Positions 1 to 19,791 of a DNA stretch of 32,000 nt are shown one piece after another. Position numbers and translations under genes: made by a program. Under the pieces are notes generated by a model. That model saw only the letters and a program-made list of their open reading frames with translations, did no database searches and was not told where the DNA came from. The stretch is from Massilicoli timonensis (GTDB lineage Bacteria; Bacillota_I; Bacilli_A; Erysipelotrichales; Erysipelotrichaceae). Each line of letters opens with the position of its first letter. Within the stretch, counting starts at the first letter, position 1. The stretch covers positions 30,001 through 62,000 of the forward strand of contig NZ_LT963433.1 of the NCBI RefSeq assembly GCF_900199515.1, read 5' to 3'.

Positions 1-308
1 ACGAGATTTATAGCAATTTCTTGAGTTGAAACAATCCAACGAGAATCATCTACTCCCCATCTAACAGGCTTCATATTTACTACTCCGGGAAAATATGAAA
101 TAAATAAATTCTTTAAAGAATTTAGAGGCAAATTGTGAAATTCTTTTATAAATCTTCCAGAAAATCCATTTCCATTTTTAGACAATTCTTCAAGATGGAT
201 CAATTTTTCTTTTATAGAACTTGGCAGCTTTAAATAATAAACTTCAGCTTGAATTTTTTTATCTAATTTTATTACAAGCGGAATAATGTAATTCTTTTGT
301 GTTTGCAT
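1..308 (-). CDS. 5' part (102 codons, runs off the left edge) of the third gene of the nuclease-helicase operon; candidate pPIWI-RE-type protein, otherwise hypothetical
   Basis: Absent from the ORF track because it is truncated by the window edge. ATG at 308-306 directly follows the helicase stop TAA (311-309), with GGAG 8 nt upstream. The reverse-complement frame stays open to position 1 (MQTQKNYIIPLVIKLDKKIQAEVYYLKLPSS...). The family assignment is inferred only from operon architecture. Confidence 0.55.
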   Translation of the reverse strand, partial: MQTQKNYIIPLVIKLDKKIQAEVYYLKLPSSIKEKLIHLEELSKNGNGFSGRFIKEFHNLPLNSLKNLFISYFPGVVNMKPVRWGVDDSRWIVSTQEIAINL

Positions 309-3300
309 TTATTTTTCTCCTTTCTTCAGAGCTTCGTAAAATGGCTCATATAATGTTCTAGCAACAATTCCATTTTTATCATCATCCATTATTTCTTCCA
401 GATATTTTTCCAGTTCTTTCAAAGTGTCAAAACTATTTGGATCAGGAGCATTAAATGCTCCATCTACAAAATATATTTTAGGATACTTATTTTTCAGTGT
501 AGCTCCAATCCTACACAAGCGACCGAATATCTGTTGGATTGTAACAAATAAACTTGCAACAATATCTTTTTTATCCTCATCTAGTAATGTTGAAAGACTA
601 TAGGAAGGATAGTTTAATAATGAATATTTTCCATAAGCTTCTTTTCTCATATCTTCAATGATATTTATTAAATTTTCATATCCTTTGGAAGAAAACTTAT
701 TCATAATATATCCATTGACTCTTTGCACATGAATTTGAAAATCACTTGGATCATTTAACGGACGGACAAGAAAGAATACAGTATCAAATGTTGCATTTCC
801 TAGGGGATCAACAATATTAAAGCCTCTTTCAATTACACAGGCAGGGGCGACTAAAATACCTTCTTTAAAAGAAGTGATGTCTCTTCTTTGAATTACTGCT
901 TGTGCTTCATCTTCTATTTCTGCACTATCCGGATTTAAGCGATAAACATGACAATTTGGCTGCTCATTTTTTAAAATTTTAGATATTTCTTCTTGTGCTA
1001 TTTTGCATTGCTCGTAACTATTAACAATAACAAGAATATTCTCCTCATTTCTTACACATTTTATGAATGTATTTGATTTTTCTTTAATTAGTTTTTTTAA
1101 ATTATCCTCTTTTTTCTTATCATCAAAGATTCCTGAAACTCTTGTTTCGCTCCTTAAATTGATAATTTCAGAGTTTGCGATAAAATCGCGTTTTATTTGC
1201 TCTGCTTCAATAATGTAATCAACAGTATCGCTCACATGAAATTTATTAGATCCGGGGATAAACCCGGTTCCTGACAGCAATAGAACATTGGCACCTAAAG
1301 AAGAACCATCATCATCTAAAACCAAATAAGGCATTTTCATAGCAAGTGCGCGTCCAAAAGCAAATTGTTTTTTAATATATAAGTCATCGTCTCTTTTATA
1401 CTCAATAGATAATGTATTTCCTATTGGCGAACTAGGCAAAATCTTTTGTTGTTGTACAAAGGAACGATTTAATATTTCTCGTAAATCCATTGGAAGATCA
1501 TTTATTTCTCCAACAGAAATTGAAATAGTATGATACACTTGTTCAAAAGCGATTACCTTTAATAAGAAAAGTAATCTTTTTCTCATTTCATTACTAAAAT
1601 CTTCAATTTCTGTTTTAATCTCATTTTCTATTTGTTCTCGCGAGAGTTTTTCCGTTTTATTTGTTGTAAAACTATTTTCAACAATCGCATCCACTAAATT
1701 TTTCTCAATATCGGAGAACTTAACATCTGAATTTTCTACTGTCTTCAATAATTGATATAAACTTGTATTACGATCTGCAAATTTGAAGAAAGAAGATAAT
1801 GAATCCCAAAATATATCTGATAAAGTGTTTTTATCTTTTTTTCTTTCTTCTCGTTTTAGCTTTTGTAATAAACTAAATCCGGAAAAACTTTTTATTGTAG
1901 AGTCTGACCAACCGGTTAGATTTTCGTTTAAATCTGTACCAATTGAAACCATTAAAATTTGAAATCTGTAGAGATTCCAATATAATTCTTTTTGATTATT
2001 GTCAATTTCAATCTTCGATTTTAAAGAGCCTTGTTCAAATTTTTCACGATATTCTTTCGTATTATTTGTGAAATATTCATTTGCCTTCAATACCGGAGAA
2101 AAAATAGAATCTAATTTACACAGAGCATTATCGACTTCGTCAATAATGACTAAATCAAAATTTCTAATTGCATAACTCATAAAAATTTCACGACTATCAC
2201 TAAAACGAATCATGGAAAAACCCTCTAAAGTTGTGATAACAATATCTGCTGCTTTAATTTCTCTATCTTGTTCGTTTCTAGGACAAATATCGTAATAAGG
2301 GCAAAGATAATATTTTTTATTGACATTCCTTTTTTCGTCCATGTTTTCGTATTTTTCATTTGCTTTGGTAAATGAAAAGCATGGTTCTTTTCCATATTGA
2401 AAGGTTACACTGTCATTGGGAAGTAATGCGTTCAATAAACAAGGTTGTTGCAAAACGAAAGATTGATATTCAGGTAAATAATCCTTTCCATTCATTTGAT
2501 GATTTATATGGTCTTTTTTACTAGAATTTCCAATTAGAGGGATACAATTATATCCCATTGAGGAAAACAATTCTGCTTTTTCTAGAACTTGATTGATCGT
2601 TGGTTGAATCATGACGATACGAAATTCTTTATCCATCATCGCAACAGATAGTGCATCTGCAAAAGTTGATTTTCCAGAACCTACTTGACCAGCCATATTA
2701 ATAACACCATCTATAGTATAGGAGTCAATAGCTTGTTTTTCTCCTTTTCGAGTATAGTATATATTATCTTCTAAAATTTTTCTTCTATAATTTTTGTGCT
2801 CAAAAACATCTAGTTTATCTGCCGCGCATAATAACTCTTCTTTTGTAATTTCTATATTTCTTCTTTTTCTTTCTCGTTCTGTGATTTTATTTTCTTTTTT
2901 ATTCAATTTTTCAAGTTTTGGTAAAGGGATCGATTTCCTGTCATAACTGACTATATAGTTATTGTTGTAATCGGCTTTTGGCTTAGGAGTTCTATCAGTA
3001 TTTGTTTTAGTATTAAGTAATTTATCATAATCTTTTACTCTTTCAGTATATACAGTTGGTGGAGTTGGATTACGAAAAATTTTATTGTCTTCAATTTTGT
3101 ATAAACAATATTCAAGATTACTTTTTATTGTATATTCTTTTAATATATCATGATAGTTTTTACTATATGAGAGATAATTCAATAAAATTTTAGCATTTGA
3201 AAGTAAAAAATTATTTCGATCATAATTATTTTCTACAATTATATCTTTTTGTTGTAGAAGAGTGTAAAAAAGGTTCACGCGTTCATTGATTCCTATTATT

Positions 3301-3407
3301 TCACATAATCGGAACAATATCTCAATTTTGACGAAATTTTCCGGACTCAATGATAGATGATCCATCGAATTCTTAACTATTCTAGCTGTTTCTTTTATAC
3401 TTCTCAT
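309..3407 (-). CDS. DinG/XPD-like superfamily-2 helicase with Cys-rich (putative 4Fe-4S) insertion
   Basis: 1032-aa ORF. Walker A is GQVGSGKST. Four Cys lie between motif I and II (PCLL, EPCF, LCPYYDIC, giving Cx5C as in DinG), followed by AADIVITT and Walker B/DExx IIDEVDN. Later motifs are LLSGTG and a motif VI-like QQIFGRLCRIG. The start ATG overlaps the upstream stop (ATGA at 3404-3407). Confidence 0.8.
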   Translation of the reverse strand: MRSIKETARIVKNSMDHLSLSPENFVKIEILFRLCEIIGINERVNLFYTLLQQKDIIVENNYDRNNFLLSNAKILLNYLSYSKNYHDILKEYTIKSNLEYCLYKIEDNKIFRNPTPPTVYTERVKDYDKLLNTKTNTDRTPKPKADYNNNYIVSYDRKSIPLPKLEKLNKKENKITERERKRRNIEITKEELLCAADKLDVFEHKNYRRKILEDNIYYTRKGEKQAIDSYTIDGVINMAGQVGSGKSTFADALSVAMMDKEFRIVMIQPTINQVLEKAELFSSMGYNCIPLIGNSSKKDHINHQMNGKDYLPEYQSFVLQQPCLLNALLPNDSVTFQYGKEPCFSFTKANEKYENMDEKRNVNKKYYLCPYYDICPRNEQDREIKAADIVITTLEGFSMIRFSDSREIFMSYAIRNFDLVIIDEVDNALCKLDSIFSPVLKANEYFTNNTKEYREKFEQGSLKSKIEIDNNQKELYWNLYRFQILMVSIGTDLNENLTGWSDSTIKSFSGFSLLQKLKREERKKDKNTLSDIFWDSLSSFFKFADRNTSLYQLLKTVENSDVKFSDIEKNLVDAIVENSFTTNKTEKLSREQIENEIKTEIEDFSNEMRKRLLFLLKVIAFEQVYHTISISVGEINDLPMDLREILNRSFVQQQKILPSSPIGNTLSIEYKRDDDLYIKKQFAFGRALAMKMPYLVLDDDGSSLGANVLLLSGTGFIPGSNKFHVSDTVDYIIEAEQIKRDFIANSEIINLRSETRVSGIFDDKKKEDNLKKLIKEKSNTFIKCVRNEENILVIVNSYEQCKIAQEEISKILKNEQPNCHVYRLNPDSAEIEDEAQAVIQRRDITSFKEGILVAPACVIERGFNIVDPLGNATFDTVFFLVRPLNDPSDFQIHVQRVNGYIMNKFSSKGYENLINIIEDMRKEAYGKYSLLNYPSYSLSTLLDEDKKDIVASLFVTIQQIFGRLCRIGATLKNKYPKIYFVDGAFNAPDPNSFDTLKELEKYLEEIMDDDKNGIVARTLYEPFYEALKKGEK

Positions 3408-4561
3408 ATATCTATATCCTTTCGTAATACTTTTTCTAATTCATTCAACCTTATACATATTATATTTTCTTTTCTTTTAATAAAATGCTCATTAATTCTC
3501 TTTAAATAGTTTTTGGGTTTTTTATTTGGAACAACATATAGTAACTTAGAGCCTTCTTCCATATGAGGAATACGATCATGAATGATATAATTAACATTTT
3601 CATGATCTTTGGCATCAATTAAATAGACCTTCTCATTTACTAACTTAACTCTGAAATCCCATGTATCATAAGTAGATTGATTTTCTCCAGGATATATATC
3701 ATAATCTAATACAATACTTGATTTTTTTAATTTATCTAATATATTTCTGATATTATTTTCTAAAATTCCCGGTTGATAGATGCATTTTGCGACAAAATCA
3801 TTCATGATCAAAGCTTGAGATATATTTATTTCTTCTCTTTCATCAATCTTTTTATTACACTCTTTAGTAATACATTTAAAGTTTCCTGATTCATCTTGTT
3901 TAAGAACCATTCCACAATTCTTACATAGATATATTTTATTTTTATTGCTGCTATTTTTTGTATAGCAAAGTTTAACTAGATCTTCATATGAATCTATAAA
4001 CTTCTTTTGCTCTTCCGTCTGGTCAATTTTGTTACAAGGAATATAAACATTTGCTTCATTTATAAGAAAAAGTCTTTTAGTAACATAATCTTGTTCAAAC
4101 ATATTTTCGATTATTTTTTGTGAATGATACTCTCTTAATGGGTTCTTATTTTTAACAGATTTGCGTATTTTGATATTATTAGACATAACAAAGTATCCCT
4201 GATCTGTAATAGCAAACCTACATTTCTCTGTATCGATACATTCGACCAAAGCCTCGATGAAATAGAGTTTTGTTTCTTCTTTTATTTCTTTTGAATATTC
4301 AGTAGGTAATTGATCAATAAGTTCAGCTAATGGTATTTCAAATATATTAAACAATTCCCATTCTGTTTGAGGTAGTATGTGTTGACCATTTTGATATAAA
4401 CCAAATTTACAATTCAAAAACGCACCATTCGCACACGCCCTACGCAGTGCAGGAATATCCTCATTCAAATCAACACACTCTTCGTTTGAAAAAAGCCTTT
4501 GATGAAGTCCGATGATTCCCAAAAAAATCATATCGCTAAATTTGTCTGTAAAATCGCTCAT
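3404..4561 (-). CDS. Zn-ribbon plus PD-(D/E)xK restriction-endonuclease-fold protein (first gene of operon)
   Basis: ORF-track ORF 3404-4645. The preferred start is Met29 (ATG 4561-4559), preceded by AAGGAGG (cttttaaggaggattcacATG). It has a CxxC...CxxxC ribbon (CKNCGMVLKQDESGNFKCITKEC). The C-terminal WDFRVKLVNEKVYLIDAKDH fits D...(D/E)xK. Confidence 0.65.
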   Translation of the reverse strand: MSDFTDKFSDMIFLGIIGLHQRLFSNEECVDLNEDIPALRRACANGAFLNCKFGLYQNGQHILPQTEWELFNIFEIPLAELIDQLPTEYSKEIKEETKLYFIEALVECIDTEKCRFAITDQGYFVMSNNIKIRKSVKNKNPLREYHSQKIIENMFEQDYVTKRLFLINEANVYIPCNKIDQTEEQKKFIDSYEDLVKLCYTKNSSNKNKIYLCKNCGMVLKQDESGNFKCITKECNKKIDEREEINISQALIMNDFVAKCIYQPGILENNIRNILDKLKKSSIVLDYDIYPGENQSTYDTWDFRVKLVNEKVYLIDAKDHENVNYIIHDRIPHMEEGSKLLYVVPNKKPKNYLKRINEHFIKRKENIICIRLNELEKVLRKDIDI

Positions 4562-4696
4562 GTGAATCCTCCTTAAAAGAAAAAGCTCAATATATCTGAA
4601 AAATATATCGAGCAAATTTATGGTTTCACAAAAAAACAATAACAATATAACTACCAGTGTTTTATAATGCTGATATAATTTTTCGAATACGCTTTC

Positions 4697-4725
4697 ATTT
4701 TAGTGTTATATTAAAGAATTGTCAA
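4697..4725 (-). promoter_or_regulatory. sigma-70/SigA-type promoter of the nuclease-helicase operon
   Basis: On the minus strand: TTGACA (4725-4720), a 17-nt spacer, then TAAAAT (4702-4697). It lies about 135 nt upstream of the ATG at 4561. Confidence 0.5.
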
Positions 4726-4738
4726 CATTTTTTCGAAA

Positions 4739-4750
4739 AATAATATTTTC
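4739..4750. repeat. left copy of 12-bp target-site duplication of the IS30-family element
   Basis: AATAATATTTTC at 4739-4750 is repeated exactly at 6457-6468. Each copy is separated from the IR by a single C. Confidence 0.7.
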
Positions 4751-4751
4751 C

Positions 4752-4780
4752 CTGAAGTGAAAAGTTTATTTCCACTTTGA
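4752..4780 (+). repeat. IS30-family element left terminal inverted repeat
   Basis: CTGAAGTGAAAAGTTTATTTCCACTTTGA is the exact reverse complement of 6427-6455. Confidence 0.85.
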
Positions 4781-4888
4781 GCAGTGAAAAGTAGATTTTA
4801 GTCTTTCACTTATTTCCACTTCCCTAACCGTTTCATTTAGTCTTACACTTATCCTGTTCGACAGTCGCCGGAAAGGCTGGTATCCATC

Positions 4889-6172
4889 ATGAAAAATTCT
4901 AATGCTTTTTCACATTTGACTTTGGATGAACGACGCATCATCCTCACCGGCATCACTAACGGCTCTTCCAAATCTGCCATTGCTCAGACCATCGGTAAAG
5001 ACAAGTCCACTGTCGCTAAAGAGATCAAACTTCATCGGATCCTCTCCTATAAATGCACTCTCCCTCTGGAATGCATTCATTACCGTAAATGTCTCCACGG
5101 CAGACAATGTACTCTCGACTGTCCCGATTACGGCCCCTTCCGCTGTTCCAGACGAGATTGCTCCCCCGGTGCCTGTAATGGCTGCTCCAACTGGTCCCAT
5201 TGCCGATTCGACAAGTATAGGTATTCTCCGGAACAAGCACATCATGATTACCGAGCCACTTTGTCTGGCTCCCGGGAAGGGGTAAATCTGACAGTACAGG
5301 AAGCCAAAACTATGGCTGCCATCATCGCTCCCCTGCTGAAACAGGGTCACTCCCCCTATCAGATCATCACCAACCATCCTGAACTGGGGATTTCTGAAAA
5401 GACCCTTTACAATTACATCGAACAGGATGTTTTCCATGAAGTTGCCGGTATTACTGTCATGGATCTGCGACGACAGGTATCCCGAAAGCTCCCTAGAAAG
5501 AAAGCAAAGGGCTACAAGAAACGAACTGATAGAAAATATCTGGCAGGAAGAACCTATAAAGATTATAAGGCTTTCCTTTCTGAATATCCGGATGCCTTCA
5601 TCGTGCAGATGGACACTGTCTATAACGATGAAAAAAGCGGACCTTTCCTCCAAACTTTTAAGTTTGTAAAGACAGGACTTCTTTTTGCGCTCTATCATGA
5701 GGAAAAAACTGCTCGCTCCATGTTAAAAGGCGTGAATCTGCTTGAGTCTATCCTTGGGGAAGAACTGTTTCGAAAATATGTCCAGATCATTCTCACAGAC
5801 AGAGGATCCGAATTCTCAGCAGCCGAAGCCATGGAAAACGGAGCTAACGGGACCAGGAGAACACGGGTATATTATTGTGACCCTATGCAGTCCGGACAGA
5901 AAGGAACGCTGGAAAACAAACATATCGAGCTGCGCTATATCCTCCCAAAAGGAACAGACTTGAAAGCCTTGGGGCTGACCGGACAGACTTCATTGAACAA
6001 GGTCCTCTGTCATGTGGATTCTTCTCCTGAAGAATCCCTAGGCGGAAGAAGTCCTCTTGAACTGACAGCGTTTCTGTATCCGGATCTTTATAAAAAGCTA
6101 TGTGCTTTTGGTATTCAGCAGATCCCAAAGGATCAGGTGATCTTAAAACCGTATTTATTAAAAAACAAATAA
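4889..6172 (+). CDS. IS30 family transposase
   Basis: 427 aa. N-terminal HTH (LTLDERRIILTGITNGSSKSAIAQTIGKDKSTVAKEIKLHR). DDE triad context: QMDTV, TDRGSEF, GQKGTLENKHIELRYILPKGTDL. Confidence 0.9.
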   Translation: MKNSNAFSHLTLDERRIILTGITNGSSKSAIAQTIGKDKSTVAKEIKLHRILSYKCTLPLECIHYRKCLHGRQCTLDCPDYGPFRCSRRDCSPGACNGCSNWSHCRFDKYRYSPEQAHHDYRATLSGSREGVNLTVQEAKTMAAIIAPLLKQGHSPYQIITNHPELGISEKTLYNYIEQDVFHEVAGITVMDLRRQVSRKLPRKKAKGYKKRTDRKYLAGRTYKDYKAFLSEYPDAFIVQMDTVYNDEKSGPFLQTFKFVKTGLLFALYHEEKTARSMLKGVNLLESILGEELFRKYVQIILTDRGSEFSAAEAMENGANGTRRTRVYYCDPMQSGQKGTLENKHIELRYILPKGTDLKALGLTGQTSLNKVLCHVDSSPEESLGGRSPLELTAFLYPDLYKKLCAFGIQQIPKDQVILKPYLLKNK

Positions 6173-6426
6173 GTAAGCAACAAAATTAAAAGAAACAACA
6201 GGCGGCTGAGCGGATTTCCATATCAACATCTCAAGTGGAAGTTAGTCTTACTCCCTAAAAAAACGACTAAAATTCACTTCTTTTCGTTATGCCCAAAAAT
6301 TAGTATTCAATGCCATAAACCTGTTGTTTCCTTTGTTATTGTAATACTAAATTCTACTTAAATGAACAAAAAAGTAGCAATTTCTTCGTTTTGTAAGAGT
6401 AATTGCCACTTATTTTTTCCGCTCTT

Positions 6427-6455
6427 TCAAAGTGGAAATAAACTTTTCACTTCAG
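6427..6455 (-). repeat. IS30-family element right terminal inverted repeat
   Basis: TCAAAGTGGAAATAAACTTTTCACTTCAG is the exact reverse complement of 4752-4780. Confidence 0.85.
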
Positions 6456-6456
6456 C

Positions 6457-6468
6457 AATAATATTTTC
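6457..6468. repeat. right copy of 12-bp target-site duplication
   Basis: AATAATATTTTC, identical to 4739-4750. Confidence 0.7.
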
Positions 6469-6589
6469 TCGACAAAATAATACTTTAATAATCATATTTT
6501 TCCATAATAACTATTATCTTTATTTTGTAAATAGACCTTGTGCATATTTAATACATGACTTGATATTATTTAAAAATAGAATTATAGCT

Positions 6590-7975
6590 TTATAAAAATA
6601 AATCATCAATTATTAACAGAACCGCGCCATCTATTTCAGCTTGCCTTTTCACCGGTTCTGTATATCCTGACTTGCTTACAAAATACAAATATTTTTCTTC
6701 AATATCAGGAAATGCTTTTGTTGCATTTACAAGGTCGTTATATTCTTCAAGAGGCATTGGGCTAGATGTGAACTTACACTCCATAAAAATTGCCTTTTTA
6801 CCACTACGATCAATTGCTAAGACATCAACATCATCTTGTGCTTTTATTACAGGATTGTTTCCCCACCATTTTCCTATAGAGAATGGAATAAAAGGAAGTT
6901 TTCTTTTCTTTGCCTGGTGAATTAGATATTCTTTGCAAATACCTTCAAAAACATCTCCCATTAAATTTGATAGATCGCTCATAATCTCACTAGCAGCATC
7001 TTTTGGTCCTAACATTGCATAATAAGCATTATTTGTAAATTCATATCGAAACCAAAACTTTAAGAAGTTATCTTTGATGACATAAATTGATTTTTTAGAT
7101 TTTTCACTTTCACCACATGGAACCCTTTTTTCAATCAAACGTAAAGTTTGAAGTATGGATAAGTATTTAGATACTTTTGTTTGATCCTCATGAATATAAT
7201 CTGCAATTTCAATGATTCTATTTCTGCCGTTTGATATTGCAGAAAGAATGGAATTATACGTATTTGTTTCTCGTAATTCTGCCTTTAATAAATTATCAGG
7301 TTCTTCATGCAAATAAGCACCATTTCGAATAATCTTAGATGTTATATTTTCTTCAATTGATTTGTTCGCATCAAAAGCTTCTAAATATCTTGGAATACCA
7401 CCTAAAATGCCATAAGCAATTAGCTTATCTTCATTACTATAGTTAGGAAAGAAGTTACTACTTTCTAAATAGTCAAAAGGTGTGATTTCTAGAGTAGCAG
7501 TTTGACGATCATGTAATGGACTTTTTCTTCCCATGATTTCATTTTCCATCACACTTACTGAAGAGCCACAAAGAATTAAAAAGATATTTTCATTCTTCCA
7601 GCTATGGTCAATTGCGTGTTGTAGGAGTGATTTTACAGAAGGATTTTCTTCAATGATATATGGAAATTCATCAATAACAAGTGCAGTTCTATCCTGTATC
7701 TTATTACCGATATAAGAAAAAGCATCTTCCCAACTTTTAAATGATGAAATAAATTGCTTGTTGAAGTGAAGTTGTATTGTTTTTGAAAAGTCTTCTAAAT
7801 TTAAGGCATCGTTTTTTTCACGTGCTGGAAAAAAGATTGTATTTGTATTCTTTGAGAATTCTTGTAGTAATGTTGTTTTCCCTACTCTTCTTCTACCATA
7901 CATTACTAGAAATTCAAACTTACTACTTTCGTATAATTCATTTAAATAAGTTAATTCTTCTACTCTTCCTAACAT
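6590..7975 (-). CDS. AAA+ ATPase of the ATPase_2/DUF234 (COG1672-like) family with C-terminal PD-ExK-like motif
   Basis: 461 aa. Walker A GRRRVGKTTLLQEF; Walker B/DExx ALVIDEFPYI. The C-terminal DVDVLAID...AIFMECKF resembles a restriction-endonuclease-fold core. GGAGG lies 6 nt upstream of the ATG. Confidence 0.8.
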   Translation of the reverse strand: MLGRVEELTYLNELYESSKFEFLVMYGRRRVGKTTLLQEFSKNTNTIFFPAREKNDALNLEDFSKTIQLHFNKQFISSFKSWEDAFSYIGNKIQDRTALVIDEFPYIIEENPSVKSLLQHAIDHSWKNENIFLILCGSSVSVMENEIMGRKSPLHDRQTATLEITPFDYLESSNFFPNYSNEDKLIAYGILGGIPRYLEAFDANKSIEENITSKIIRNGAYLHEEPDNLLKAELRETNTYNSILSAISNGRNRIIEIADYIHEDQTKVSKYLSILQTLRLIEKRVPCGESEKSKKSIYVIKDNFLKFWFRYEFTNNAYYAMLGPKDAASEIMSDLSNLMGDVFEGICKEYLIHQAKKRKLPFIPFSIGKWWGNNPVIKAQDDVDVLAIDRSGKKAIFMECKFTSSPMPLEEYNDLVNATKAFPDIEEKYLYFVSKSGYTEPVKRQAEIDGAVLLIIDDLFL

Positions 7976-8098
7976 ATGATTCCTCCGTTCGTATTTATAT
8001 ACGCAAAAGTATTATACTCTAAAGTATAAAAAATATCAATAATCCTCCTATTTTTATAATCCACTCGAGTGTACATATAAGCCATTTAATAAGAAAAA

Positions 8099-8171
8099 CA
8101 CATTTTTCTGAGTTTTCAGATGAATTTCGCACATTTTTCCGTATTTTTTAGCATTCGTTTTACACATTTTT
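8099..8171. repeat. three phased direct copies of CACATTTTT
   Basis: Copies start at 8099, 8130 and 8163 (spacing 31 and 33 bp). They lie in the intergenic region between the recombinase stop (8270) and the ATPase start (7975). Confidence 0.5.
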
Positions 8172-8269
8172 CTAAAAATAATGATTTTCATTTTTATCGT
8201 AAGATTTTTTGAATGCACAAAAATATCCAATCACGATTTAGTATTGAAAACATTAAACAATAATAGGTT

Positions 8270-10111
8270 CTACTCCCTTAGATAAATTGCCTTCTTATTT
8301 TTATGAGGTCTTTTTATCACACCTTCAACTTCTAACTGCTTGATCTGTTTCATAAAAATACCTTTATAGGAATACGTATAACCTTGATCGAGTAAAGCTT
8401 GATGAACACTTTTCAAAGAAAACATTTGATCTACCACTTGTTTTCCAATCTCCTCAATGATTGCTTTACGATATGTTTCTTTTTCTTCATCAACTATCAT
8501 AACATTCGCATCAATTTTATACGAAAAATATCCCTTGAAGTGAAATACAATTCGATTATCATGCACAACAATTTTATGAAATAGTATTTGTAGTTCTTTC
8601 TTACTATAATCCTGTTTATGAATCATTTCATCTATCACATCTAGTGCTGTTGTAAATCGTTCTTCATGCAAAGAGTAACTCTCTATTTCTTTTTCTAATA
8701 ACGATATATTCTCTTCACACTCTTTCATCATTTTTGCTTTTTCATCAATCAAAGATTGATAAGATTCTTGTATAATTTCATAATTCTCAGGTTCAGTCAT
8801 ACTTTCTCTCATCTTATTTTCAATCAACTGTTTGACTTCTAACTTTAACTGAGTAACTTTTGTTTTATGAGAAGTAATCTTTTTAGAAATACGCTTTATA
8901 TCTTCATCTTTTGTATCAGCATGAATCTGTTCTTCTAAAAAATCTTTATATACATCTCTGCATCGCTGCAAGAATATCGTAACTGCTTTTTTTAGTTCAT
9001 GTTCAGTTACAGACTTTGAACTACACGCTGTTTTGCCTTGTTTAAGATAAGTTGAACAGTAATAGTGAGTATTTCCTTCTCGAATATCTTTTATTGTTCT
9101 AGAGGGCTTTAATAGACTGCCACAGTCTGCACAATATAATAAACCATGAAATACATTCTCATGAATTTTTCGTTTTCTTTTAGACCGTACTTTCTTACTT
9201 TCTAACTTTTCTTGACAAATACAAAACAACTTTTCATCAATAATTGCTTCATGATGATGTTGAAAGATTTTCCATTTCTCTTTAGGAAGTTTTTGATATT
9301 TTCCTCTAATCTTCACACATTCTCCTTTATGAAGAATTAAAGTTCCTAGATACGTTTCATTCATTAAAATCCTACGCACACAAGAATCATTCCAAACATC
9401 AGTATATTTACTCTTATCATCTACTCCATTTTTTAAACGAAATTCATGTAAAGAACGAGATGGTGTTGGAATATGTTCTCTTGTTAGTGTACGAGCAATT
9501 TGTAAGATACCATAACCATCCCCATACATTTGAAAGATACGTTTTACTACATTAGCATTCACTGGATCAACTACTAACTGAGCACTTTTCTTACTCACTT
9601 TACGATATCCAAAAGGTGGAGTTGTCATCCATTCTCCATCATCTTGTTTCATGTGAATGACATTCTTTACTTTCTTACTTGCTTCTTTGACATACAGTTC
9701 ATTGTGCCATGTTTTAATACCAATCGTAGAATCATTATCTTGAAAATTAGAATATCCATCATCTAATGCAATGACTTCACAACCATAATCCCTTGCATCT
9801 TCCATAAACAGAAGGGCACGAGCATTATGTCTTCCTAATCTTGACATATCTTTAATTAACAATCGTTTCACTTTACCAGATGCGATATCTTTATTCAAAC
9901 GATCAAATTCTGGACGTTCAAATGAATAACCACTTTCTCCATCATCAATATACCGTTCGCTAATCGCATAATGATTTTCTTTCGCAAATCGTGTTAATAT
10001 CTTATCTTGGTTTTCAATGGATATAGAAAGGCCTTTGTTTCGATCATCTCTTGATAATCTTAAATAAAGAACAACATCACGATCTTTTGTCTCTACCATA
10101 AAATCAATCAT
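8270..10111 (-). CDS. large serine recombinase (TnpX/TndX-like)
   Basis: 613 aa. N-terminal resolvase catalytic motif VVLYLRLSRDDRNKG...ENQ. Recombinase domain and Zn ribbon (CADCGSLLKP...YYCSTY). Coiled-coil region, then an LQILFHKIVVHDNRIVFHFKG segment like the DUF4368 region of TnpX-type enzymes. Confidence 0.9.
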   Translation of the reverse strand: MIDFMVETKDRDVVLYLRLSRDDRNKGLSISIENQDKILTRFAKENHYAISERYIDDGESGYSFERPEFDRLNKDIASGKVKRLLIKDMSRLGRHNARALLFMEDARDYGCEVIALDDGYSNFQDNDSTIGIKTWHNELYVKEASKKVKNVIHMKQDDGEWMTTPPFGYRKVSKKSAQLVVDPVNANVVKRIFQMYGDGYGILQIARTLTREHIPTPSRSLHEFRLKNGVDDKSKYTDVWNDSCVRRILMNETYLGTLILHKGECVKIRGKYQKLPKEKWKIFQHHHEAIIDEKLFCICQEKLESKKVRSKRKRKIHENVFHGLLYCADCGSLLKPSRTIKDIREGNTHYYCSTYLKQGKTACSSKSVTEHELKKAVTIFLQRCRDVYKDFLEEQIHADTKDEDIKRISKKITSHKTKVTQLKLEVKQLIENKMRESMTEPENYEIIQESYQSLIDEKAKMMKECEENISLLEKEIESYSLHEERFTTALDVIDEMIHKQDYSKKELQILFHKIVVHDNRIVFHFKGYFSYKIDANVMIVDEEKETYRKAIIEEIGKQVVDQMFSLKSVHQALLDQGYTYSYKGIFMKQIKQLEVEGVIKRPHKNKKAIYLRE

Positions 10112-10173
10112 AATAATGATACCTGCCTTTCTGTATCACTATTATGTCGTGCTTTCCTTTATTTGACAGCGCC

Positions 10174-10422
10174 CTAATGCTCATATTTTTTATCCATCCT
10201 ACAAGCAATCAGTTCTTTTAATAACTCCTTCATATCCACTGTTCCATTTATAAAATGAACTTCATAAGTGTGTTTACCATTTGTATTTGAAACAACTGAC
10301 TTTGGCTTATCTGATCGCATAGATACATCTCCTACAGTATCATATGAATCAGTAGTGTGTTGTTTTCTCATTCTATGAGAATCCTTTAAATTCAAAGTTT
10401 TATTTTGATTACATAATTGCAA
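10174..10422 (-). CDS. small hypothetical protein immediately upstream of, and co-oriented with, the recombinase
   Basis: The 82-codon ORF begins with TTG. An alternative ATG (Met18, 10371) has an AAGGA about 10 nt upstream. No motif was recognised; position alone hints at an accessory/directionality role. Confidence 0.4.
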   Translation of the reverse strand: MQLCNQNKTLNLKDSHRMRKQHTTDSYDTVGDVSMRSDKPKSVVSNTNGKHTYEVHFINGTVDMKELLKELIACRMDKKYEH

Positions 10423-10454
10423 AATCCCTCCATTCTTCTCTGATATTTTATCTA

Positions 10455-10475
10455 AAATTTCAATATTTGAAATTT
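10455..10475. promoter_or_regulatory. perfect 21-bp palindrome upstream of the small-ORF/recombinase unit
   Basis: AAATTTCAA-TAT-TTGAAATTT, 33-53 bp upstream of the ORF start at 10422. Confidence 0.35.
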
Positions 10476-10847
10476 AGCAGGATAAGAGAATGTAGTGCAA
10501 TGATACACTCATTCTCCTCTTGAACAACTTACTAGAAGTTAGTTTTAAGCTTTGTTCAAAGCATATATTAGACTTTTGTGTCATGTATCATGAATGTCAT
10601 CAACCATTTGATTTAGTAATGCGTTTATTCCATATGATTTTATGTTGTATTGCAATTATTACAATATAGTCGTTTGATACAAAATAACTCATCTTATGAC
10701 ACAAACAACTAGTGTCATTGACACAAAACAATTTCATTTGTATTGCATTTTGCACGACATAAGGAATTGAGTATCGTAAACCTTTTCAGGATATAGATTC
10801 ACGACACAAATTTCACTAAAAATCTTCTAACACTTTTCAATTAAAAT

Positions 10848-11219
10848 CTAATTTGTTTCAAGATCAAATTCTTCGTGCACTATACCGCTAACTTTTCGAT
10901 TAAATTCATCAAAATATCGTTGATATTGGCGTTTTTGATGACGATACCAATCACTATTTGGATTTAAATGTTTCTTAGGATTATCATTCATCTTACTTCG
11001 AATAAGATGATAATAATCATTATACACTTTACCACTTGCACATAAAGTTTCAGAAATATAATAGATCATTATGCAGATTACTTCATTTCCAAATTCTTCA
11101 CATAACCCATATAACTGGATTAAGGGAAGTGATACTCTATTCTCAAATCCTAATGATACTGTATGACCTACATAATCCTTGTATTTTTCTTTTATATTAT
11201 TATGTGAAGCATCACTCAC
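10848..11219 (-). CDS. hypothetical protein; possibly the C-terminal piece of a decayed replication-organiser-like gene
   Basis: 123-codon ORF starting with GTG and lacking a clear RBS. It abuts and overlaps the end of the disrupted reading frames at 11212-11536. Confidence 0.4.
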   Translation of the reverse strand: MSDASHNNIKEKYKDYVGHTVSLGFENRVSLPLIQLYGLCEEFGNEVICIMIYYISETLCASGKVYNDYYHLIRSKMNDNPKKHLNPNSDWYRHQKRQYQRYFDEFNRKVSGIVHEEFDLETN

Positions 11220-11536
11220 TGACTAGGGAAGATATGCAAATAGAATCATCTGTTTCTTTTTTGAAATTGGTATGAACATAAATTCTTCGTTGTGAATAAG
11301 TTCCGTTCTCACTTGGAATTTTTTCAACGGAAATCAAATAATCTCACTTCAATATTTTCAAAGATCGAACAATAGTGCTAGCCGATACATCCATGCTTTC
11401 TTGATAGACGATATAACAATCCAAATAAATTAGATATTTTAAAATCAGCATTCTCATAATCAAATAATTTATCAAAGATTATTATATATCCATTACGTAA
11501 TTTTCCTTGCTTCTCTTTATTCAAATCATCCTCCAT
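11212..11536 (-). pseudogene. decayed HTH / replication-initiator-like gene
   Basis: The ATG at 11536-11534 opens MEDDLNKEKQGKLRNGYIIIFDKLFDYENADFKISNLFGLLYRLSRK, which then hits a stop. A shifted frame continues ESMDVSASTIVRSLKILK, then stops, then DYLISVEKIPSENGTYSQRRIYVHTNFKKE.... That gives at least one frameshift and one in-frame stop. Confidence 0.45.
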
Positions 11537-11550
11537 TCTTAATAAAAAAA

Positions 11551-11690
11551 GGGCGCTTTAACTTTTTGCGTAGCTATTTTAAAGGCGCTTTAAATTGATG
11601 CGTAGGTGTGGAGGACCTTTAACTTTTTTCGTGGCTATTTTCAAACCTATTTAACTTCATGCGTGGATACCCTTTAACACCTTGCGTGGG
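11551..11690 (+). repeat. five direct subterminal copies of TTTAAC(N4-5)TGCGT(A/G)G-like motif at the ISL3 left end
   Basis: The copies are gctttaactttttgcgtagc, gctttaaattgatgcgtagg, cctttaacttttttcgtggc, tatttaacttcatgcgtgga and cctttaacaccttgcgtggg. Confidence 0.6.
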
Positions 11691-11773
11691 TGTCCACTTT
11701 TACTATGAAAAAAATAACCTTCATGTTACTTTTTCTTTGCCGTGAAACTTTAACACGAAGGAGGTATCAACCT

Positions 11774-13093
11774 ATGTATGATTTTATCACAGATCTATTC
11801 AATATCGACAAAAATTTGATTCAATTTTCTGATATCAAATCTTCTCCTGATCTAACCCAACTTTTTATTGCTCTTAAACCCACTAATCCTCCTTGTCCTT
11901 ACTGTAGTGGTATTTTCCACTCCAATGGTTATCATCGTCCTAAATATATCAATCACCCTAAACTTACTGATCGTAAGTGTGTCATCGTTTTCAAAAATAA
12001 TCGTTATCAATGCAACGAATGTCTTCGTACTTTCTCCGGTAAGAATCCTTTTACTTTCTCTACCTTCAAAAACTCTTACCTTGCTTTGAATAACATTATG
12101 AAATCTCTTTCCAATCTCAACTATACTTATTCTATGGTAGCTCAACTCAATCACATCTCCATTACGCAAGTACAGCGTTACTTTGACAGCTTTGTCAATA
12201 TCCCTAGAATTCATCTTCCTGAATCAATTGGTATCGATGAAATCCATTCTAAGATGGCAAATCGTAGAGATTCTGCTTATTTATGCATTATGGTAGATAA
12301 TGTAAATAGATCCTTATTTGAAATTCTTCCTTCTCGTTCTAAGGCTGAATTAAAACGCTATTTCGATAAAATACCTCTTGCAGAGAGAAATAACGTGAAA
12401 TACGTAACGATTGATATGTGGTTGCCTTATAAAGATATCGCTGCTACTTATTTAAGGAACGCTATTATCGCTGTTGATCCTTTCCATGTTGTAAAACACC
12501 TCATGGATTGTTTCACTCGCATTCGTCTTAATATCCTTTATCAAGTGGAATACAACAGTAATAGTTATTATCTCTTAAAAACTTGGAAAGATTTGATCGA
12601 AAAAGATGTTTATTTAGATAATAAACCTGTCTACAACAAACGATTTAATAGAAAGTTGAACAAAAGAGATCTGCTTGATATGATATTGGATATTAGTGAA
12701 AACTTAGCTCTTGCATATCGTTTGAAAGAGATGTATTTACTCTTTAATCAGAAAGCAACTGAAGAAAATTGTGAACAATGGTTTAATTCTATTTATGAGG
12801 CTTTTATAGAGGCACAGATTCCTGAATATCATGAGTTTATTATTCTCCTTAACAATTGGAAAATTGAAATACTCAATTCATTCAAAAGACCTTTTGATAA
12901 TAGAAAGCTTAGTAACTCTCTTTCTGAAAACATCAATGGTCAGATACGTACTTATCTGGCGATTTCTAATGGTGTTACTAATTTCACTAGATTTAGAAAA
13001 AGATGTCTTTTAGCTCTTAATAAAAAAGTTTTCTATTCTATTAATGATCACTTAAAGTCTGATAAAAATTCTAAGAAAAATCATTCATTATAA
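11774..13093 (+). CDS. ISL3 family transposase
   Basis: The ORF track gives 11690-13093. The preferred start is ATG 11774, preceded by GAAGGAGG. It has a zf-ISL3-like CPYCSG...H...C..C and DDE_Tnp_ISL3 motifs IGIDEIH, VTIDMWLPYKD and AVDPFHVVKH. Confidence 0.9.
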   Translation: MYDFITDLFNIDKNLIQFSDIKSSPDLTQLFIALKPTNPPCPYCSGIFHSNGYHRPKYINHPKLTDRKCVIVFKNNRYQCNECLRTFSGKNPFTFSTFKNSYLALNNIMKSLSNLNYTYSMVAQLNHISITQVQRYFDSFVNIPRIHLPESIGIDEIHSKMANRRDSAYLCIMVDNVNRSLFEILPSRSKAELKRYFDKIPLAERNNVKYVTIDMWLPYKDIAATYLRNAIIAVDPFHVVKHLMDCFTRIRLNILYQVEYNSNSYYLLKTWKDLIEKDVYLDNKPVYNKRFNRKLNKRDLLDMILDISENLALAYRLKEMYLLFNQKATEENCEQWFNSIYEAFIEAQIPEYHEFIILLNNWKIEILNSFKRPFDNRKLSNSLSENINGQIRTYLAISNGVTNFTRFRKRCLLALNKKVFYSINDHLKSDKNSKKNHSL

Positions 13094-13180
13094 TCATCTT
13101 ACCTATATTCTCGGCATATAAAAAGCAAATGTTTTTATAAGATTTTTTATCTTATTTTTCATTTGCTTTTCTTCTTATTA

Positions 13181-13233
13181 CCAACGCACTAGTTTATAGC
13201 GTCATTTCCCAAAACCACGCACCAGTTTACATT
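13181..13233 (-). repeat. two inverted copies of the ISL3 subterminal motif at the right end
   Basis: ccaacgcactagtttatagcg and ccacgcaccagtttacatt are reverse-complement versions of the left-end motif. Confidence 0.55.
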
Positions 13234-13250
13234 ACAATTTTTAAATAAAA

Positions 13251-15191
13251 TCATCCACTTCTGCAATCAATTAAATTCCAATCTGAAAAAACACATTTTG
13301 ACTTTATGTAGGTACTTTCTTGTATCGCTAAGCAAAGTAGCTTATTTGGTCTACTCATACCTACATAAACACATTTTCTACTTTGTTCAACTTCCTTGCT
13401 GCTCCCTAACTTGCCAACTCCTAAATAAGGTAAGATGCGTTTTATGTCAGAAGAATTTTTATTTTCAGTTTCCAAATATAACGTAGCATCGTGTGTTTCG
13501 CCTTTAACACCATGCACTGTATCAAAAATAATTTTTCTATTATGCGTTTCATCAAAATAAATATTCAAACCCGATTTACTTGAATCGATTAATTTTGTTT
13601 CATCCATAAAATATAGTGGAACTTTCAAAAATGCATCTGTTTCATTGCATTCTGCACCGACAATATTATTCGCTATTTCTCTAATAACTGCATTCACATT
13701 TTCAATAGTATAACTCTGCAATGAAGATAATCGAAGAAATCCATCAGTATATACATCAAAATATTTTTCAGATAAAATACTTTTTATAGAATGCACTGTA
13801 TATTTATTGCCAGTTGCAGAATCAATACTCCCCGTATAACCAAATAATTTACATAAAAGCCGTCTCACTTCATTTTCTACTGAATATAGTTTTCCTTGTT
13901 GTAAATCCTTTGCTATTTTATCAATATAATTCCAGTATCTATTTGGATTTTTTACATTAATATTAGGATTAAATTTATCCCAGTAATCACCAATTTTTAA
14001 TCCAGCTAATTCTTCTCGTTTTACTAGTCCAATCATTTTATAAATTCCCTTAGAATCATATAATTCATTTTGATTTAACGCAGTAATAAATGCATCAACC
14101 ACTCTATCTCTTGTATCTTCATTAAAAACAATCAAAGTTGGAACATAAGATAAATATCCTTTAGACGAGATAATTTTTCTCTTTTCGGTTCTTAAATTCA
14201 CCAAAACATCAGCAACCTCCTGTCCATACCGATTAGAAGAAGCCATTTCCATGCATTCCTCATTTAGTAACCACTCAGTTTCTTGAGCTTTCTCAGAATC
14301 ATATATAGCTTGATCTGGATCGCCAATATGAAATACGCAAGTTTTGTTTTTATCAAAAATTTTATTTAGAACTTGTCTTTGTATTAAATCACAGTCTTGA
14401 TATTCATCAATAAATACATATTTAAATCGCATTGAAAAGAGTTCCGTATATGCTTCAGATAAATTATCCATAGCTTCCTTAGCATATGAATAAGCATCTT
14501 TGTATCGAATCATACCCTCTTCTTTTAACAAATTTGAAATTAAGTTTTTAAATTGTTCCGTTGATGGCTTATCCGCACCTGCTAGTGCTCTTTTCTGATT
14601 TCCTATGCATAAAGTCCCATTATCACGTATATGTAGTGCCTCTATATGTTCAAGTTGATCGGTGAACTGATTACCCGTTTCAAAATTTTTTTCTACCACA
14701 AATTTCAACGCCCTATACTTTGACCTGCTCTTCATTTTAATCAACATATGATTTGCATATGTACGATTATCAACTACTTGAATATTACGACCTGAAATAT
14801 TGCGTAAATAAGGCATTGTTACAAACTTGTCAACAAATGATTGTATTGTTCCAACATAATTTGGATAATTTATAAGTCTATCTGCATATTCATTTAATTT
14901 TATTTTTATTTCATTAACAGCAACATTCGTATGTGATAAAACACATACTCCAGCTCCATCAGGAAGAGGCATTCTTTCAGCTAATAATTTTAATTTTGCA
15001 AGTAATACCGTAGTTTTACCACTTCCAGGACAAGCAGCAACATCTGATGATTTCCAACAACAGATGACTTTTTTTGCATCATCGGGAAAATGACAAAAAT
15101 CAGGTAAAAGTAGTTTCTCAACTTCTTCTATTTCTTCATCATTAATATGTATCTCACTCATTAAATTATCAGTCCTTTCGCTAATTTTCAA
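13251..15191 (-). CDS. gajB: UvrD/PcrA/Rep-like SF1 helicase, GajB-like (Gabija helicase component)
   Basis: 646 aa. Walker A AACPGSGKTTVLL; motif II VFIDEYQDC; C-terminal HGVKGETHDATLYL and YVGMSRPNKLLCLA. An alternative start Met11 (15161) has GAAAGGA upstream. It sits directly downstream of the OLD-family gene. Confidence 0.75.
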   Translation of the reverse strand: MKISERTDNLMSEIHINDEEIEEVEKLLLPDFCHFPDDAKKVICCWKSSDVAACPGSGKTTVLLAKLKLLAERMPLPDGAGVCVLSHTNVAVNEIKIKLNEYADRLINYPNYVGTIQSFVDKFVTMPYLRNISGRNIQVVDNRTYANHMLIKMKSRSKYRALKFVVEKNFETGNQFTDQLEHIEALHIRDNGTLCIGNQKRALAGADKPSTEQFKNLISNLLKEEGMIRYKDAYSYAKEAMDNLSEAYTELFSMRFKYVFIDEYQDCDLIQRQVLNKIFDKNKTCVFHIGDPDQAIYDSEKAQETEWLLNEECMEMASSNRYGQEVADVLVNLRTEKRKIISSKGYLSYVPTLIVFNEDTRDRVVDAFITALNQNELYDSKGIYKMIGLVKREELAGLKIGDYWDKFNPNINVKNPNRYWNYIDKIAKDLQQGKLYSVENEVRRLLCKLFGYTGSIDSATGNKYTVHSIKSILSEKYFDVYTDGFLRLSSLQSYTIENVNAVIREIANNIVGAECNETDAFLKVPLYFMDETKLIDSSKSGLNIYFDETHNRKIIFDTVHGVKGETHDATLYLETENKNSSDIKRILPYLGVGKLGSSKEVEQSRKCVYVGMSRPNKLLCLAIQESTYIKSKCVFSDWNLIDCRSG

Positions 15192-17097: not shown

Positions 17098-17143
17098 CGT
17101 TAACCTCCTTAATTCAAAACATTTGAGATTTATAATTATTTAT

Positions 17144-17355
17144 TTAATTTTTCTCTGGTCGTATATCTAAAATATCATCAACACTACATTCTAATGTTCT
17201 ATACATCTTTACTAATACTTCCATTGATACATATTGATTCTTAGAAATCTTAGCCATCGTATTTTGACTGATTCCTGCTTTTTCTGCAAATTCCATTTTC
17301 TTCCATCTTTATCAATTAAAAGTTTAAATAATTTGTTGTAACAAACATCCATCAT
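17144..17355 (-). pseudogene. frameshifted XRE/Cro-C1-type HTH regulator upstream of gajA
   Basis: AGAGGA RBS plus ATG at 17355. Frame 0 gives MMDVCYNKLFKLLIDKD and then nonsense. The shifted frame gives KKMEFAEKAGISQNTMAKISKNQYVSMEVLVKMYRTLECSVDDILDIRPEKN, ending at TAA 17146-17144. This implies a 1-nt lesion near 17300-17308. Confidence 0.6.
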
Positions 17356-17414
17356 AAATTCCTCTTTTCTTTACTTATATTTATTATATAGGCAATATTA
17401 ACTAAATAACAAGT

Positions 17415-17438
17415 TTTTCTGTAAAAATAGAAAGATTT
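17415..17438. promoter_or_regulatory. 24-bp box TTTTCTGTAAA-N5-AAAGATTT, copy A (upstream of HTH/gajA)
   Basis: The same bipartite box occurs at 19693-19716. Copy A lies 60-83 bp upstream of the HTH start. On the minus strand it contains TTTACA. Confidence 0.35.
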
Positions 17439-17774
17439 ACTTGATATTGATTAATTAAATTTAGTAATTGATAATATATCTAATATAATTCATGATTGTC
17501 ATACTGACGTTTTATCTCTGCCTTCCTTTAGATTCCATCTTACGCTGAATAACTATTGTTAGAATAATTGATTTCTTTTGTCATGCAAGTAAATTAAAAA
17601 GTTCATTATTGTTATTAACAATCTTGCAATAGATTTCTAGCATAAGAGCATCCTTGTCAATAGCGTATGTTTTTTCATTCTTACCGTTTATCTCTATCAC
17701 AGTATTAGGAAGCATCTTTATTCGTTTTTTTAAATATGTATATCTATTTAATTTGATATTAGAATTTCTATTTC

Positions 17775-19716: not shown

Positions 19717-19791
19717 TCCTTAAAAACAGCATATTTTTCTGAATTTTATATAGAAATCCATTCCCTTAACTTCAATCCAATATGGGTTCAC

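Follow-up and report, generated by a model that had tools for sequence, protein, structure and literature searches.

Among the described systems that resemble the locus analyzed here, three stand out. The pPIWI-RE system, predicted by Burroughs, Iyer and Aravind in 2013 within an R-loop/RNA-guide model (PMC3702460) and represented in PADLOC by the models PprRE, PprDinG and PprPIWI, unites a restriction endonuclease (REase)-fold protein, a helicase and a PIWI protein. A member of this family, encoded in the same kind of triad, is PsPIWI-RE from Pseudomonas stutzeri (Huang et al. 2022, PMC10991935), whose start overlaps the upstream dinG. It carries D525 and D610, cuts DNA in vitro when guided by RNA, and RNA when guided by DNA, and loses cleavage altogether with either D525A or D610A. 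In the DdmDE system of Vibrio cholerae, the DNA-guided DdmE, an inactive prokaryotic Argonaute (pAgo), passes plasmid DNA on to the helicase-nuclease DdmD (10.1101/2024.05.10.593530; PMC11795196). Here, we analyzed an operon at the left end of a 32,000-nucleotide (nt) stretch of the genome of Massilicoli timonensis (Erysipelotrichaceae; contig NZ_LT963433.1), which we call the window, and found that it is a complete, intact pPIWI-RE three-gene module (PADLOC "Ppr", alias pAgo type III) with a predicted leader RNA in front of its first gene. An earlier note on this DNA had described the mechanism of pPIWI-RE as essentially uncharacterized, and the literature and the Protein Data Bank (PDB), as searched by us, agree with this, offering only the 2013 prediction, one biochemical paper on an isolated PsPIWI-RE protein and no solved structure. 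The triad type is already known and this very PIWI protein is already named in RefSeq; the leader was not found described anywhere.

The three genes are co-oriented on the minus strand (Table 1), and all features named in the earlier note were recovered, among them both junctions, an ATGA overlap and a TAAATG, and a third reading frame that stays open over 102 codons up to the window edge. The start of gene 1 is preceded by a Shine-Dalgarno (SD) sequence, AAGGAGG, at 4574-4568, and AAGGAG stands 8 nt upstream of the junction between genes 2 and 3. For gene 1, the list of open reading frames (ORFs) gives a TTG start at 4645, and the recorded protein, WP_102265918.1, is the 385-residue form. The products of genes 2 and 3 are recorded as WP_102265916.1 and WP_102265914.1, all three under M. 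timonensis; NCBI names the third a "pPIWI_RE module domain-containing protein" and calls the first two hypothetical.

Table 1. Positions of the operon, its leader and the neighboring features, numbered within the window unless a locus handle (L001) is given.
Feature	Position	Strand	Remarks
Sigma-70-type promoter	4697..4725	minus	TTGACA 4725-4720, 17 nt, TAAAAT 4702-4697
Predicted leader RNA, ~116 nt	4575..4692	minus	5' box, variable middle, terminator-like hairpin, U-run
Leader 5' box	4690-4678	minus	GUAUUCGAAAAAU
Hairpin of 13 perfect base pairs	4613-4585	minus	followed by U-run UUUUUCUUUU at 4584-4575
Gene 1, pPIWI-RE-associated REase	3404..4561	minus	ATG at 4561, stop at 3404; 385 residues
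ATGA overlap	3404..3407	minus	gene 1 stop TGA, gene 2 start ATG
Gene 2, DinG-like Fe-S helicase of superfamily 2	309..3407	minus	1032 residues
TAAATG junction	306..311	minus	gene 2 TAA 311-309 abuts gene 3 ATG 308-306
Gene 3, first 102 codons (pPIWI_RE_X domain)	1..308	minus	crosses window edge; full product 873 residues
IS30-like element	4742-6465		transposase 4889-6172, plus strand, HTH_38 domain
PDC-S27-like ATPase (ATPase_2/DUF234)	6590-7975	minus	PADLOC candidate system PDC-S27, 1.6e-58
Large serine recombinase	8270-10111		
ISL3 transposase	11690-13093		
GajB (Gabija)	13251-15191	minus	PADLOC 2.5e-164
GajA (Gabija)	15181-17097	minus	PADLOC 1.4e-208
599-residue protein	17775-19574	minus	N-terminal DUF4365 (27.6 bits); adjoins Gabija
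62-residue ORF	L001:15732-15920		first half of PIN7 domain only; 10 nt after gene 3
IS3-family element (rve)	L001:16035-17650		after PIN7 fragment, ~300 nt downstream of gene 3

Relatives were collected from GTDB, scanned with one genome per species and with the host species absent, which returned 38 loci; the closest PIWI protein among them was 45% identical. A scan of metagenomes with an alignment of close REases yielded 5 loci. In more than 25 loci from several phyla, the genes stand in the order REase, helicase, PIWI, with termini that overlap, abut or leave gaps of a few nt, and wherever a locus had enough flank, an REase-like gene encoding ~375-430 residues and a helicase gene preceded the PIWI gene. 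The same order and the same tight junctions, the strict arrangement by which the pPIWI-RE system is recognized, run through the loci numbered L007-L044. The gene 2 protein occurs in identical form in 140 indexed blocks of public assemblies. In architecture, the operon is identical to the system described in 2013 (PMC3702460) and is a member of it: gene order, tight termini, an REase with domain Y and a zinc (Zn) ribbon, a helicase with a Z domain and a cysteine insert, an X-MID-PIWI protein with a conserved Arg and Glu, and a mobile, patchily distributed context are all shared. Two things are added here, namely the detail that the PIWI protein of this clade lacks the catalytic Asp residues and, in Bacillota, a leader composed of promoter, 5' box and terminator, which the 2013 paper does not mention, the possible regulators discussed there being helix-turn-helix (HTH) fusions only. 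One genome, Clostridium sp. SM-530-WT-3G, carries two divergent triads on two contigs (L017 and L018); their PIWI proteins share 38% and 31% identity with the query.

Gene 1 encodes a nuclease composed of domain Y, a Zn ribbon and a PD-(D/E)xK core, with its predicted catalytic residues intact. The Zn ribbon and the D...DAK core that the earlier note had read in this gene are both present (C213, C216, C230 and C235; D302 and D316-A-K318) and conserved in 45 diverse homologues, down to an identity of 15-20%. R163, the four cysteines, G265, E268, D302 and K318 never vary across this set, and D299 and D316 hardly do (D316 is kept in at least 90%). The N-terminal part is the helical domain Y (conserved Y159 and R163, the latter being the domain-Y arginine), and E268 joins D302 and D316-A-K318 in the core, so that the REase fold, the domain-Y Arg and the Zn ribbon, which together mark the first gene of a pPIWI-RE system, are all found. 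By profile, the protein weakly matches the PADLOC models pPIWI_RE_REase and PprRE (each 1.2e-5) and Pfam pPIWI_RE_REase (23.3 bits, under the cut-off of 26.1). Its AlphaFold model reached a predicted local distance difference test (pLDDT) score of 93.7 and a predicted template modeling (pTM) score of 0.88. The top Foldseek matches of this model in the PDB were all PD-(D/E)xK nucleases: Can2, MspJI, NucS/EndoMS, VRR_NUC, SfsA, RecU, AvaII, McrC, Card1, MunI and MUS81.

Gene 2 encodes an iron-sulfur (Fe-S) cluster superfamily 2 (SF2) helicase with a Z domain, and its predicted catalytic residues are intact. Its motifs comprise the Walker A sequence GSGKST (G245/K246), the DEVD at 423-426 and motif VI (Q959, G962, R963 and R966), and four cysteines, C323, C343, C369 and C375, the last two forming a Cx5C pair, lie between K246 and D423-E424. 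In an orthologue set spanning Bacillota, Chloroflexota, Cyanobacteriota, Actinomycetota, Verrucomicrobiota and Spirochaetota, G245/K246, D423, E424 and all four cysteines are invariant (25/25), D426 is kept in 22/25, and the motif VI residues are invariant too (21-25 orthologues). The N-terminal Z domain, at approximately residues 19-141, was recognized by the PADLOC model pPIWI_RE_Z (1.2e-6) and stood just below the Pfam cut-off (24.8 against 25). An SF2 helicase with a Z domain and a cysteine insert between Walker A and Walker B is what the second gene of a pPIWI-RE system encodes. The protein also matched PADLOC PprDinG (6.4e-89 over residues 88-1027), PADLOC typeIV_DinG (E = 0.022) and Pfam DEAD (27.2 bits). 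The earlier note had assigned it a DinG/XPD motif set with four cysteines including a Cx5C; these motifs were confirmed, but Pfam does not back the label, neither DEAD_2 nor Helicase_C_2 being matched at E <= 1. A search of the PDB by sequence and profile gave no significant match to a solved structure either, E. coli DinG appearing only at E = 0.12, over the Cys region. The placement of the Fe-S cysteines agrees with the DinG/XPD clade. The "DinG" label rests on the family-specific PprDinG model and on the position of the Cys cluster; we regard it as less secure, and we use "DinG-like" in this sense.

Gene 3 is the PIWI partner that the earlier note had proposed from 102 codons. Even this fragment matched Pfam pPIWI_RE_X (30.8 bits, cut-off 30.5) and PADLOC PprPIWI. 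An exact-match look-up of the gene 2 protein led to contigs that carry the identical gene 2, extend beyond the edge of the window and supply the full 873-residue product, and on one of these (L001, gene 3 at 13100-15721) the protein matched pPIWI_RE_X (DUF3962; 1.2e-27), MID_pPIWI_RE (2.3e-13) and RNaseH_pPIWI_RE (DUF3893; 1.1e-14), all passing their cut-offs. An AlphaFold model built from a 24-sequence alignment (pLDDT 82, pTM 0.81) was Argonaute-like, and Foldseek matched it along its entire length to TtAgo, KmAgo, MpAgo, Siwi and MILI at E ~1e-14 over ~800-950 columns with ~10% identity. Together with the conserved operon order, these matches settle the identity of gene 3, and the earlier note's worry that the full-length product might prove to lack a PIWI/RNase H-like fold did not materialize. 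Pfam Piwi and PAZ gave no match in this protein. Solved structures in the PDB include no PIWI-RE relative by sequence, profile or fold search, and PDB sequence and profile searches with all three proteins of the operon found no relative.

We then compared gene 3 with PsPIWI-RE, whose sequence was taken from the supplement of its paper. The Arg and Glu on the extension of the PIWI beta-sheet, from which the family takes its "RE", are R749 and E820 here and correspond to R639 and E718 of PsPIWI-RE. Both are invariant in our 17- and 24-sequence alignments and retained in 21/26 orthologues from the loci, four actinobacterial orthologues lacking the Arg and one of these also the Glu. The motifs of the MID pocket, D525-P-K527, R531, R539, Q542-F543, D570 and R573-Q574 in the numbering of gene 3, are likewise invariant, and the protein has probably retained the ability to bind the 5' end of a guide. 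The catalytic positions differ. N698 aligns with D610 of PsPIWI-RE, a position at which 14/16 aligned relatives keep Asp. D525 of PsPIWI-RE falls on strand beta1, which in gene 3 (593-600, LLVGIHVI) contains no acidic residue, and the alignment maps it to H598 or I600. Gene 3 therefore stands outside the catalytically active subset of the family, in which both positions carry Asp. Because H598/I600 and N698 replace the Asp pair that is essential in PsPIWI-RE, the PIWI protein is predicted to bind but not to cut, and it is probably a sensor rather than a slicer. Such a loss is not peculiar to this locus: most sampled relatives lack one or both catalytic Asp residues, in agreement with the statement of the 2013 paper that only a subset of the family is catalytic (PMC3702460). 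Two clostridial relatives, L026 and L028, keep Asp at both positions (AIDV and SGDG), so predicted active and inactive PIWI forms coexist in the leader-bearing clade.

Gene 3 and PsPIWI-RE are thus members of one family with remote sequence similarity, one with His/Ile and Asn and predicted not to cleave, the other a cleaving enzyme with its Asp pair. With the classical long Argonautes (TtAgo, KmAgo and MpAgo), gene 3 has the overall fold in common, including the MID pocket and the RNase H-like PIWI domain. In contrast to them, its N-terminal half is the family-specific X domain, its catalytic tetrad is incomplete, and it comes with obligatory helicase and nuclease partners. DdmDE (10.1101/2024.05.10.593530; 10.1101/2024.07.20.604412; PMC11795196) shares the proposed logic, an inactive, guide-loaded Argonaute-like sensor combined with a helicase and a PD-(D/E)xK nuclease. 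However, helicase and nuclease are fused in DdmD, whereas they are separate genes here and the helicase has a predicted Fe-S cluster; moreover, the DdmD and DdmE models of PADLOC had no match in the three proteins at E <= 1. The two systems are not homologous at the family level, and we regard the resemblance as functional only.

According to the earlier note, the genes lie behind a near-consensus promoter. The promoter was confirmed; the simple arrangement was not, because a hairpin of 13 perfect base pairs and a U-run intervene between it and the SD sequence of gene 1. The promoter matches the consensus at 11/12 positions and is the top-scoring site on the minus strand. In DNA this rich in AT, promoter-like sites as a class show no excess (30 in the window against 30.5 in shuffled sequences), and we consider the promoter credible because its geometry is conserved in 15 homologous Bacillota loci, not because of its match to the consensus. 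In these loci, a -35 element (TTGACA in 10 of the 15) is followed by a spacer of mostly 17 nt (18 in L028), a -10 element, a further 4-6 nt and a GT(A/G)Y box. Since the box follows the -10 element at this distance, it lies at the predicted 5' end of the transcript. Its sequence is GUAUUCGAGAAAAU in group A, the group closest to the window, and GU(A/G)Y...AAAA generally. The -35 element of the window is 17 nt outside the end of the IS30-like insertion sequence (IS) at 4742.

The hairpin recurs in the same place. Its end lies 10 nt before AAGGAGG, and the U-run ends directly at this SD sequence. An equivalent hairpin of differing sequence was found 10-35 nt upstream of the REase start in 14/16 Bacillota loci, and a hairpin near the start was present for 14/16 REase genes as against 5/117 other ORFs in the same loci (Fisher p = 4e-13). 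The stem in group A comprises 12 pairs, and compensatory double changes affect 6 of them. The first 26 nt of the window leader are complementary to its own terminator, with a duplex energy of -16.0 kcal/mol (z = -4.7). This relationship held across loci: the duplex of box and terminator averaged -14.2 kcal/mol within a locus and -8.1 kcal/mol between loci, the within-locus mean being reached by none of 20000 permutations, and z against shuffled boxes ranged from -1.5 to -5.0. When a 26-nt window was slid from -60 to the terminator, the best partner of the terminator was the 5' box in 13/15 loci. When the whole leader of L022 or L024 is folded, the minimum-free-energy structure contains the pairing of box and terminator in place of the terminator.

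Between box and terminator, sequence and length are poorly conserved, total leader length varying over ~102-165 nt. RNAalifold predicted the terminator alone for group A and nothing for the mixed group, whose hairpins MAFFT had misaligned. Rfam contained no match to the window leader or to those of nine other loci. Two covariance models built on group A, R1 and R2, match the window at 4577-4692, a sequence that is itself part of the training alignment (as L001), and recover leaders of other groups weakly, with E from 0.0085 to 0.84 but always at the same position. Because these models are weak across groups, the cross-group case rests on the position statistics and the duplex energies. Leader equivalents were noted in L007, L008, L009, L014, L015, L017, L019, L021-L024, L026, L028, L045-L047 and L050. 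The two triads of Clostridium sp. SM-530-WT-3G differ in this respect: L017 has a leader hairpin near the REase start, and none was found there in L018. Group A also contains candidate small hairpins, seen by eye and left unscored on account of register shifts in the alignment (ATCAG/CTGGT; TAGC/GCTA versus ATCCTT/AAGGAT). In L051, a locus without the leader hairpin, a gene for a 311-residue HTH_3 (XRE-type) protein (L051:73-1008) overlaps the REase start and may represent an alternative, protein-based regulation. A Clostridiales-3 RNA (Rfam RF02942, 249 bits) lies at L008:10028-10296, ~400 nt downstream of the PIWI-RE gene of a Lachnospiraceae locus; it was seen in one of nine loci scanned.

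The operon lies within an island. GC content is 28-31% over positions 1-20000, apart from one IS at ~40%, and 42-45% over 20001-32000, with a sharp boundary between the two; the high-GC part encodes peptidases, a radical-SAM enzyme and desulfoferrodoxin. A low-GC stretch of at least 20 kb, its left end lying past the window, indicates a horizontally acquired island. The defense-island setting that the earlier note had mentioned is supported by a complete Gabija pair, GajA and GajB, and a PDC-S27-like ATPase nearby within the low-GC stretch. The DUF4365 protein next to Gabija had no PADLOC match. The IS30-like element that neighbors the operon has 39-nt terminal inverted repeats, 92% complementary, and its transposase gene is split in a metagenomic variant (L002). 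On the other side, gene 3 is followed by an ORF with half of a PIN7 domain, which is probably what remains of a PIN gene truncated by the IS behind it. We considered this PIN7 ORF as a fourth gene of the system and rejected it, as the PIWI gene has no PIN gene behind it at any other locus.

Overall, we suggest, with moderate confidence, that the operon is a defense module in which a guided, non-cleaving PIWI protein directs its helicase and REase partners to destroy a target, while a terminator/antiterminator in the leader gates expression. A guide-loaded PIWI would sense invading nucleic acid by sequence without cleaving it, the guide being RNA according to the 2013 model and the biochemistry of PsPIWI-RE. 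Target-bound PIWI would recruit or license the DinG-like helicase, which would unwind or translocate along the DNA, and the REase partner would then degrade that DNA, so that the triad would work as a "split" version of the handover from DdmE to DdmD. Several results weigh against this proposal. The literature searched links no pPIWI-RE triad experimentally to phage or plasmid defense. The fold matches of the REase are individually not significant (best E = 7e-3), the profile and structure searches described above lend gene 2 little support as a member of the DinG clade, and the mapping of D525 carries a two-residue ambiguity, neither candidate residue being acidic. Moreover, the only in vivo data, which concern PsPIWI-RE, whose deletion raises ciprofloxacin sensitivity and affects cell division, were read as a role in replication (PMC10991935). 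They could mean that the triad is a chromosome-maintenance or replication machine that resolves R-loops, replication-transcription conflicts or catenated chromosomes, a role already proposed for PsPIWI-RE and some classical pAgos and consistent with the action of DinG helicases on R-loops (PMC3702460). We nevertheless consider this improbable for the present locus. It sits in a ~20 kb island of 28-31% GC flanked by core DNA of 44%, among a serine recombinase, three IS elements, Gabija and a PDC-S27-like gene; its relatives are scattered patchily over several phyla, with two divergent copies in a single genome; and neither a dedicated nuclease of the PD-(D/E)xK type nor tight repression through a terminator in the leader would be expected of a housekeeping system.

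A second version of immunity would have the target-bound, catalytically dead PIWI unleash REase and helicase on all DNA, that of the host as well, and thereby kill or arrest the cell without degrading the invader selectively. Inactive pAgos with associated effectors are generally abortive (PMC11333966), as the long-B, short and SiAgo-like systems illustrate; an REase without a partner methyltransferase leaves nothing obvious to mark self DNA; and an operon behind a strong terminator is what would be expected of toxic cargo. However, DdmDE, which also pairs an inactive pAgo with a helicase-nuclease, degrades plasmids without killing its host, and a processive helicase partner suits the directional destruction of a recognized molecule, so we judge abortive infection unlikely. 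That the locus is merely a decaying, non-functional remnant bracketed by IS elements, its PIWI catalytic residues lost, seems very improbable. The IS30-like element does end close to the -35 element, the IS3-family element and the truncated PIN7 ORF do follow gene 3, and N698 does replace an Asp that most aligned relatives keep. Yet none of the three ORFs is disrupted, and every residue of nuclease, helicase, Fe-S cluster and MID pocket that is invariant in the family is in place. Promoter and leader are likewise undamaged and outside the IS, the identical gene 2 product recurs throughout public assemblies, and members of this family as a rule lack PIWI catalytic residues, whose loss is thus no sign of decay.

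For the leader, the sequence has the anatomy of an attenuator, namely a promoter-proximal intrinsic terminator before gene 1 and a mutually exclusive alternative pairing, and the co-variation of the first 26 nt with their own terminator suggests an antiterminator. The strong promoter would fire into the intrinsic terminator directly before the ribosome-binding site of gene 1, and pairing of the first ~25 nt of the transcript with this terminator would form a terminator/antiterminator switch that gates transcription of the operon. The leader shares with known attenuators and with ToxIN-like loci the succession of strong promoter, short RNA, intrinsic terminator and effector genes, and it has an upstream segment that can pair with the terminator. 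However, we found no conserved aptamer, leader peptide, T-box or tandem RNA repeats, and it is the very 5' end of the transcript that competes for pairing. We rejected a metabolite riboswitch as the leading reading because conservation between box and terminator does not extend across groups. We also rejected the idea that the hairpin merely terminates an upstream gene: its place is behind the promoter and next to the SD sequence, and it recurs despite differing upstream neighbors, the neighbor in the window being a divergently oriented IS. In type III toxin-antitoxin loci such as ToxIN, a terminator between the RNA and the toxin sets their ratio, and the leader could similarly be a separate small RNA gene that acts with the proteins as an antitoxin-like, scaffold or MID-bound autoregulatory RNA. 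Such a gene is built in just this way, from a near-consensus promoter, a box conserved at the 5' terminus and a strong terminator; divergent loci keep the arrangement next to their REase gene, proteins of the PIWI family anchor RNAs by the 5' end (PMC3702460), and the complementarity of box and terminator could equally serve the structure of a small RNA, a point that also tells against the switch. On the other hand, the middle of the leader is poorly conserved and RNAalifold found no common structure there, the mutual exclusion of box-terminator pairing and terminator hairpin is the signature of a switch, and the distance from U-run to SD leaves no space for a second promoter, which means that operon transcripts must read through. 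We therefore treat a separate small RNA gene as a minority possibility and retain the attenuator as our preferred reading. More speculatively, and with a rather low expectation on our part, the MID pocket of the PIWI protein may capture the 5' box of the leader and so choose between terminator and antiterminator, or the ~115-nt RNA may be a subunit of the complex.

The pPIWI-RE family is the one major branch of prokaryotic Argonaute-like proteins for which the literature and PDB searched contain no published immune phenotype, complex structure or mechanism, and this locus provides a compact, fully intact example from a cultured human-gut bacterium. Its helicase, nuclease, Fe-S and guide-pocket residues are kept and its slicer residues are lost, which leads to the prediction that the PIWI protein senses while helicase and REase execute. 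The leader offers an explanation for how a methylase-less nuclease operon could be silenced, and whether the operon is cloned with or without it will alter the outcome of a defense assay. If the PIWI protein captures the leader box, this would amount to Argonaute-mediated autoregulation or to a means of sensing free as against guide-loaded PIWI. In either case, the leader is a candidate for a new class of cis-regulatory RNA tied to a defense system.

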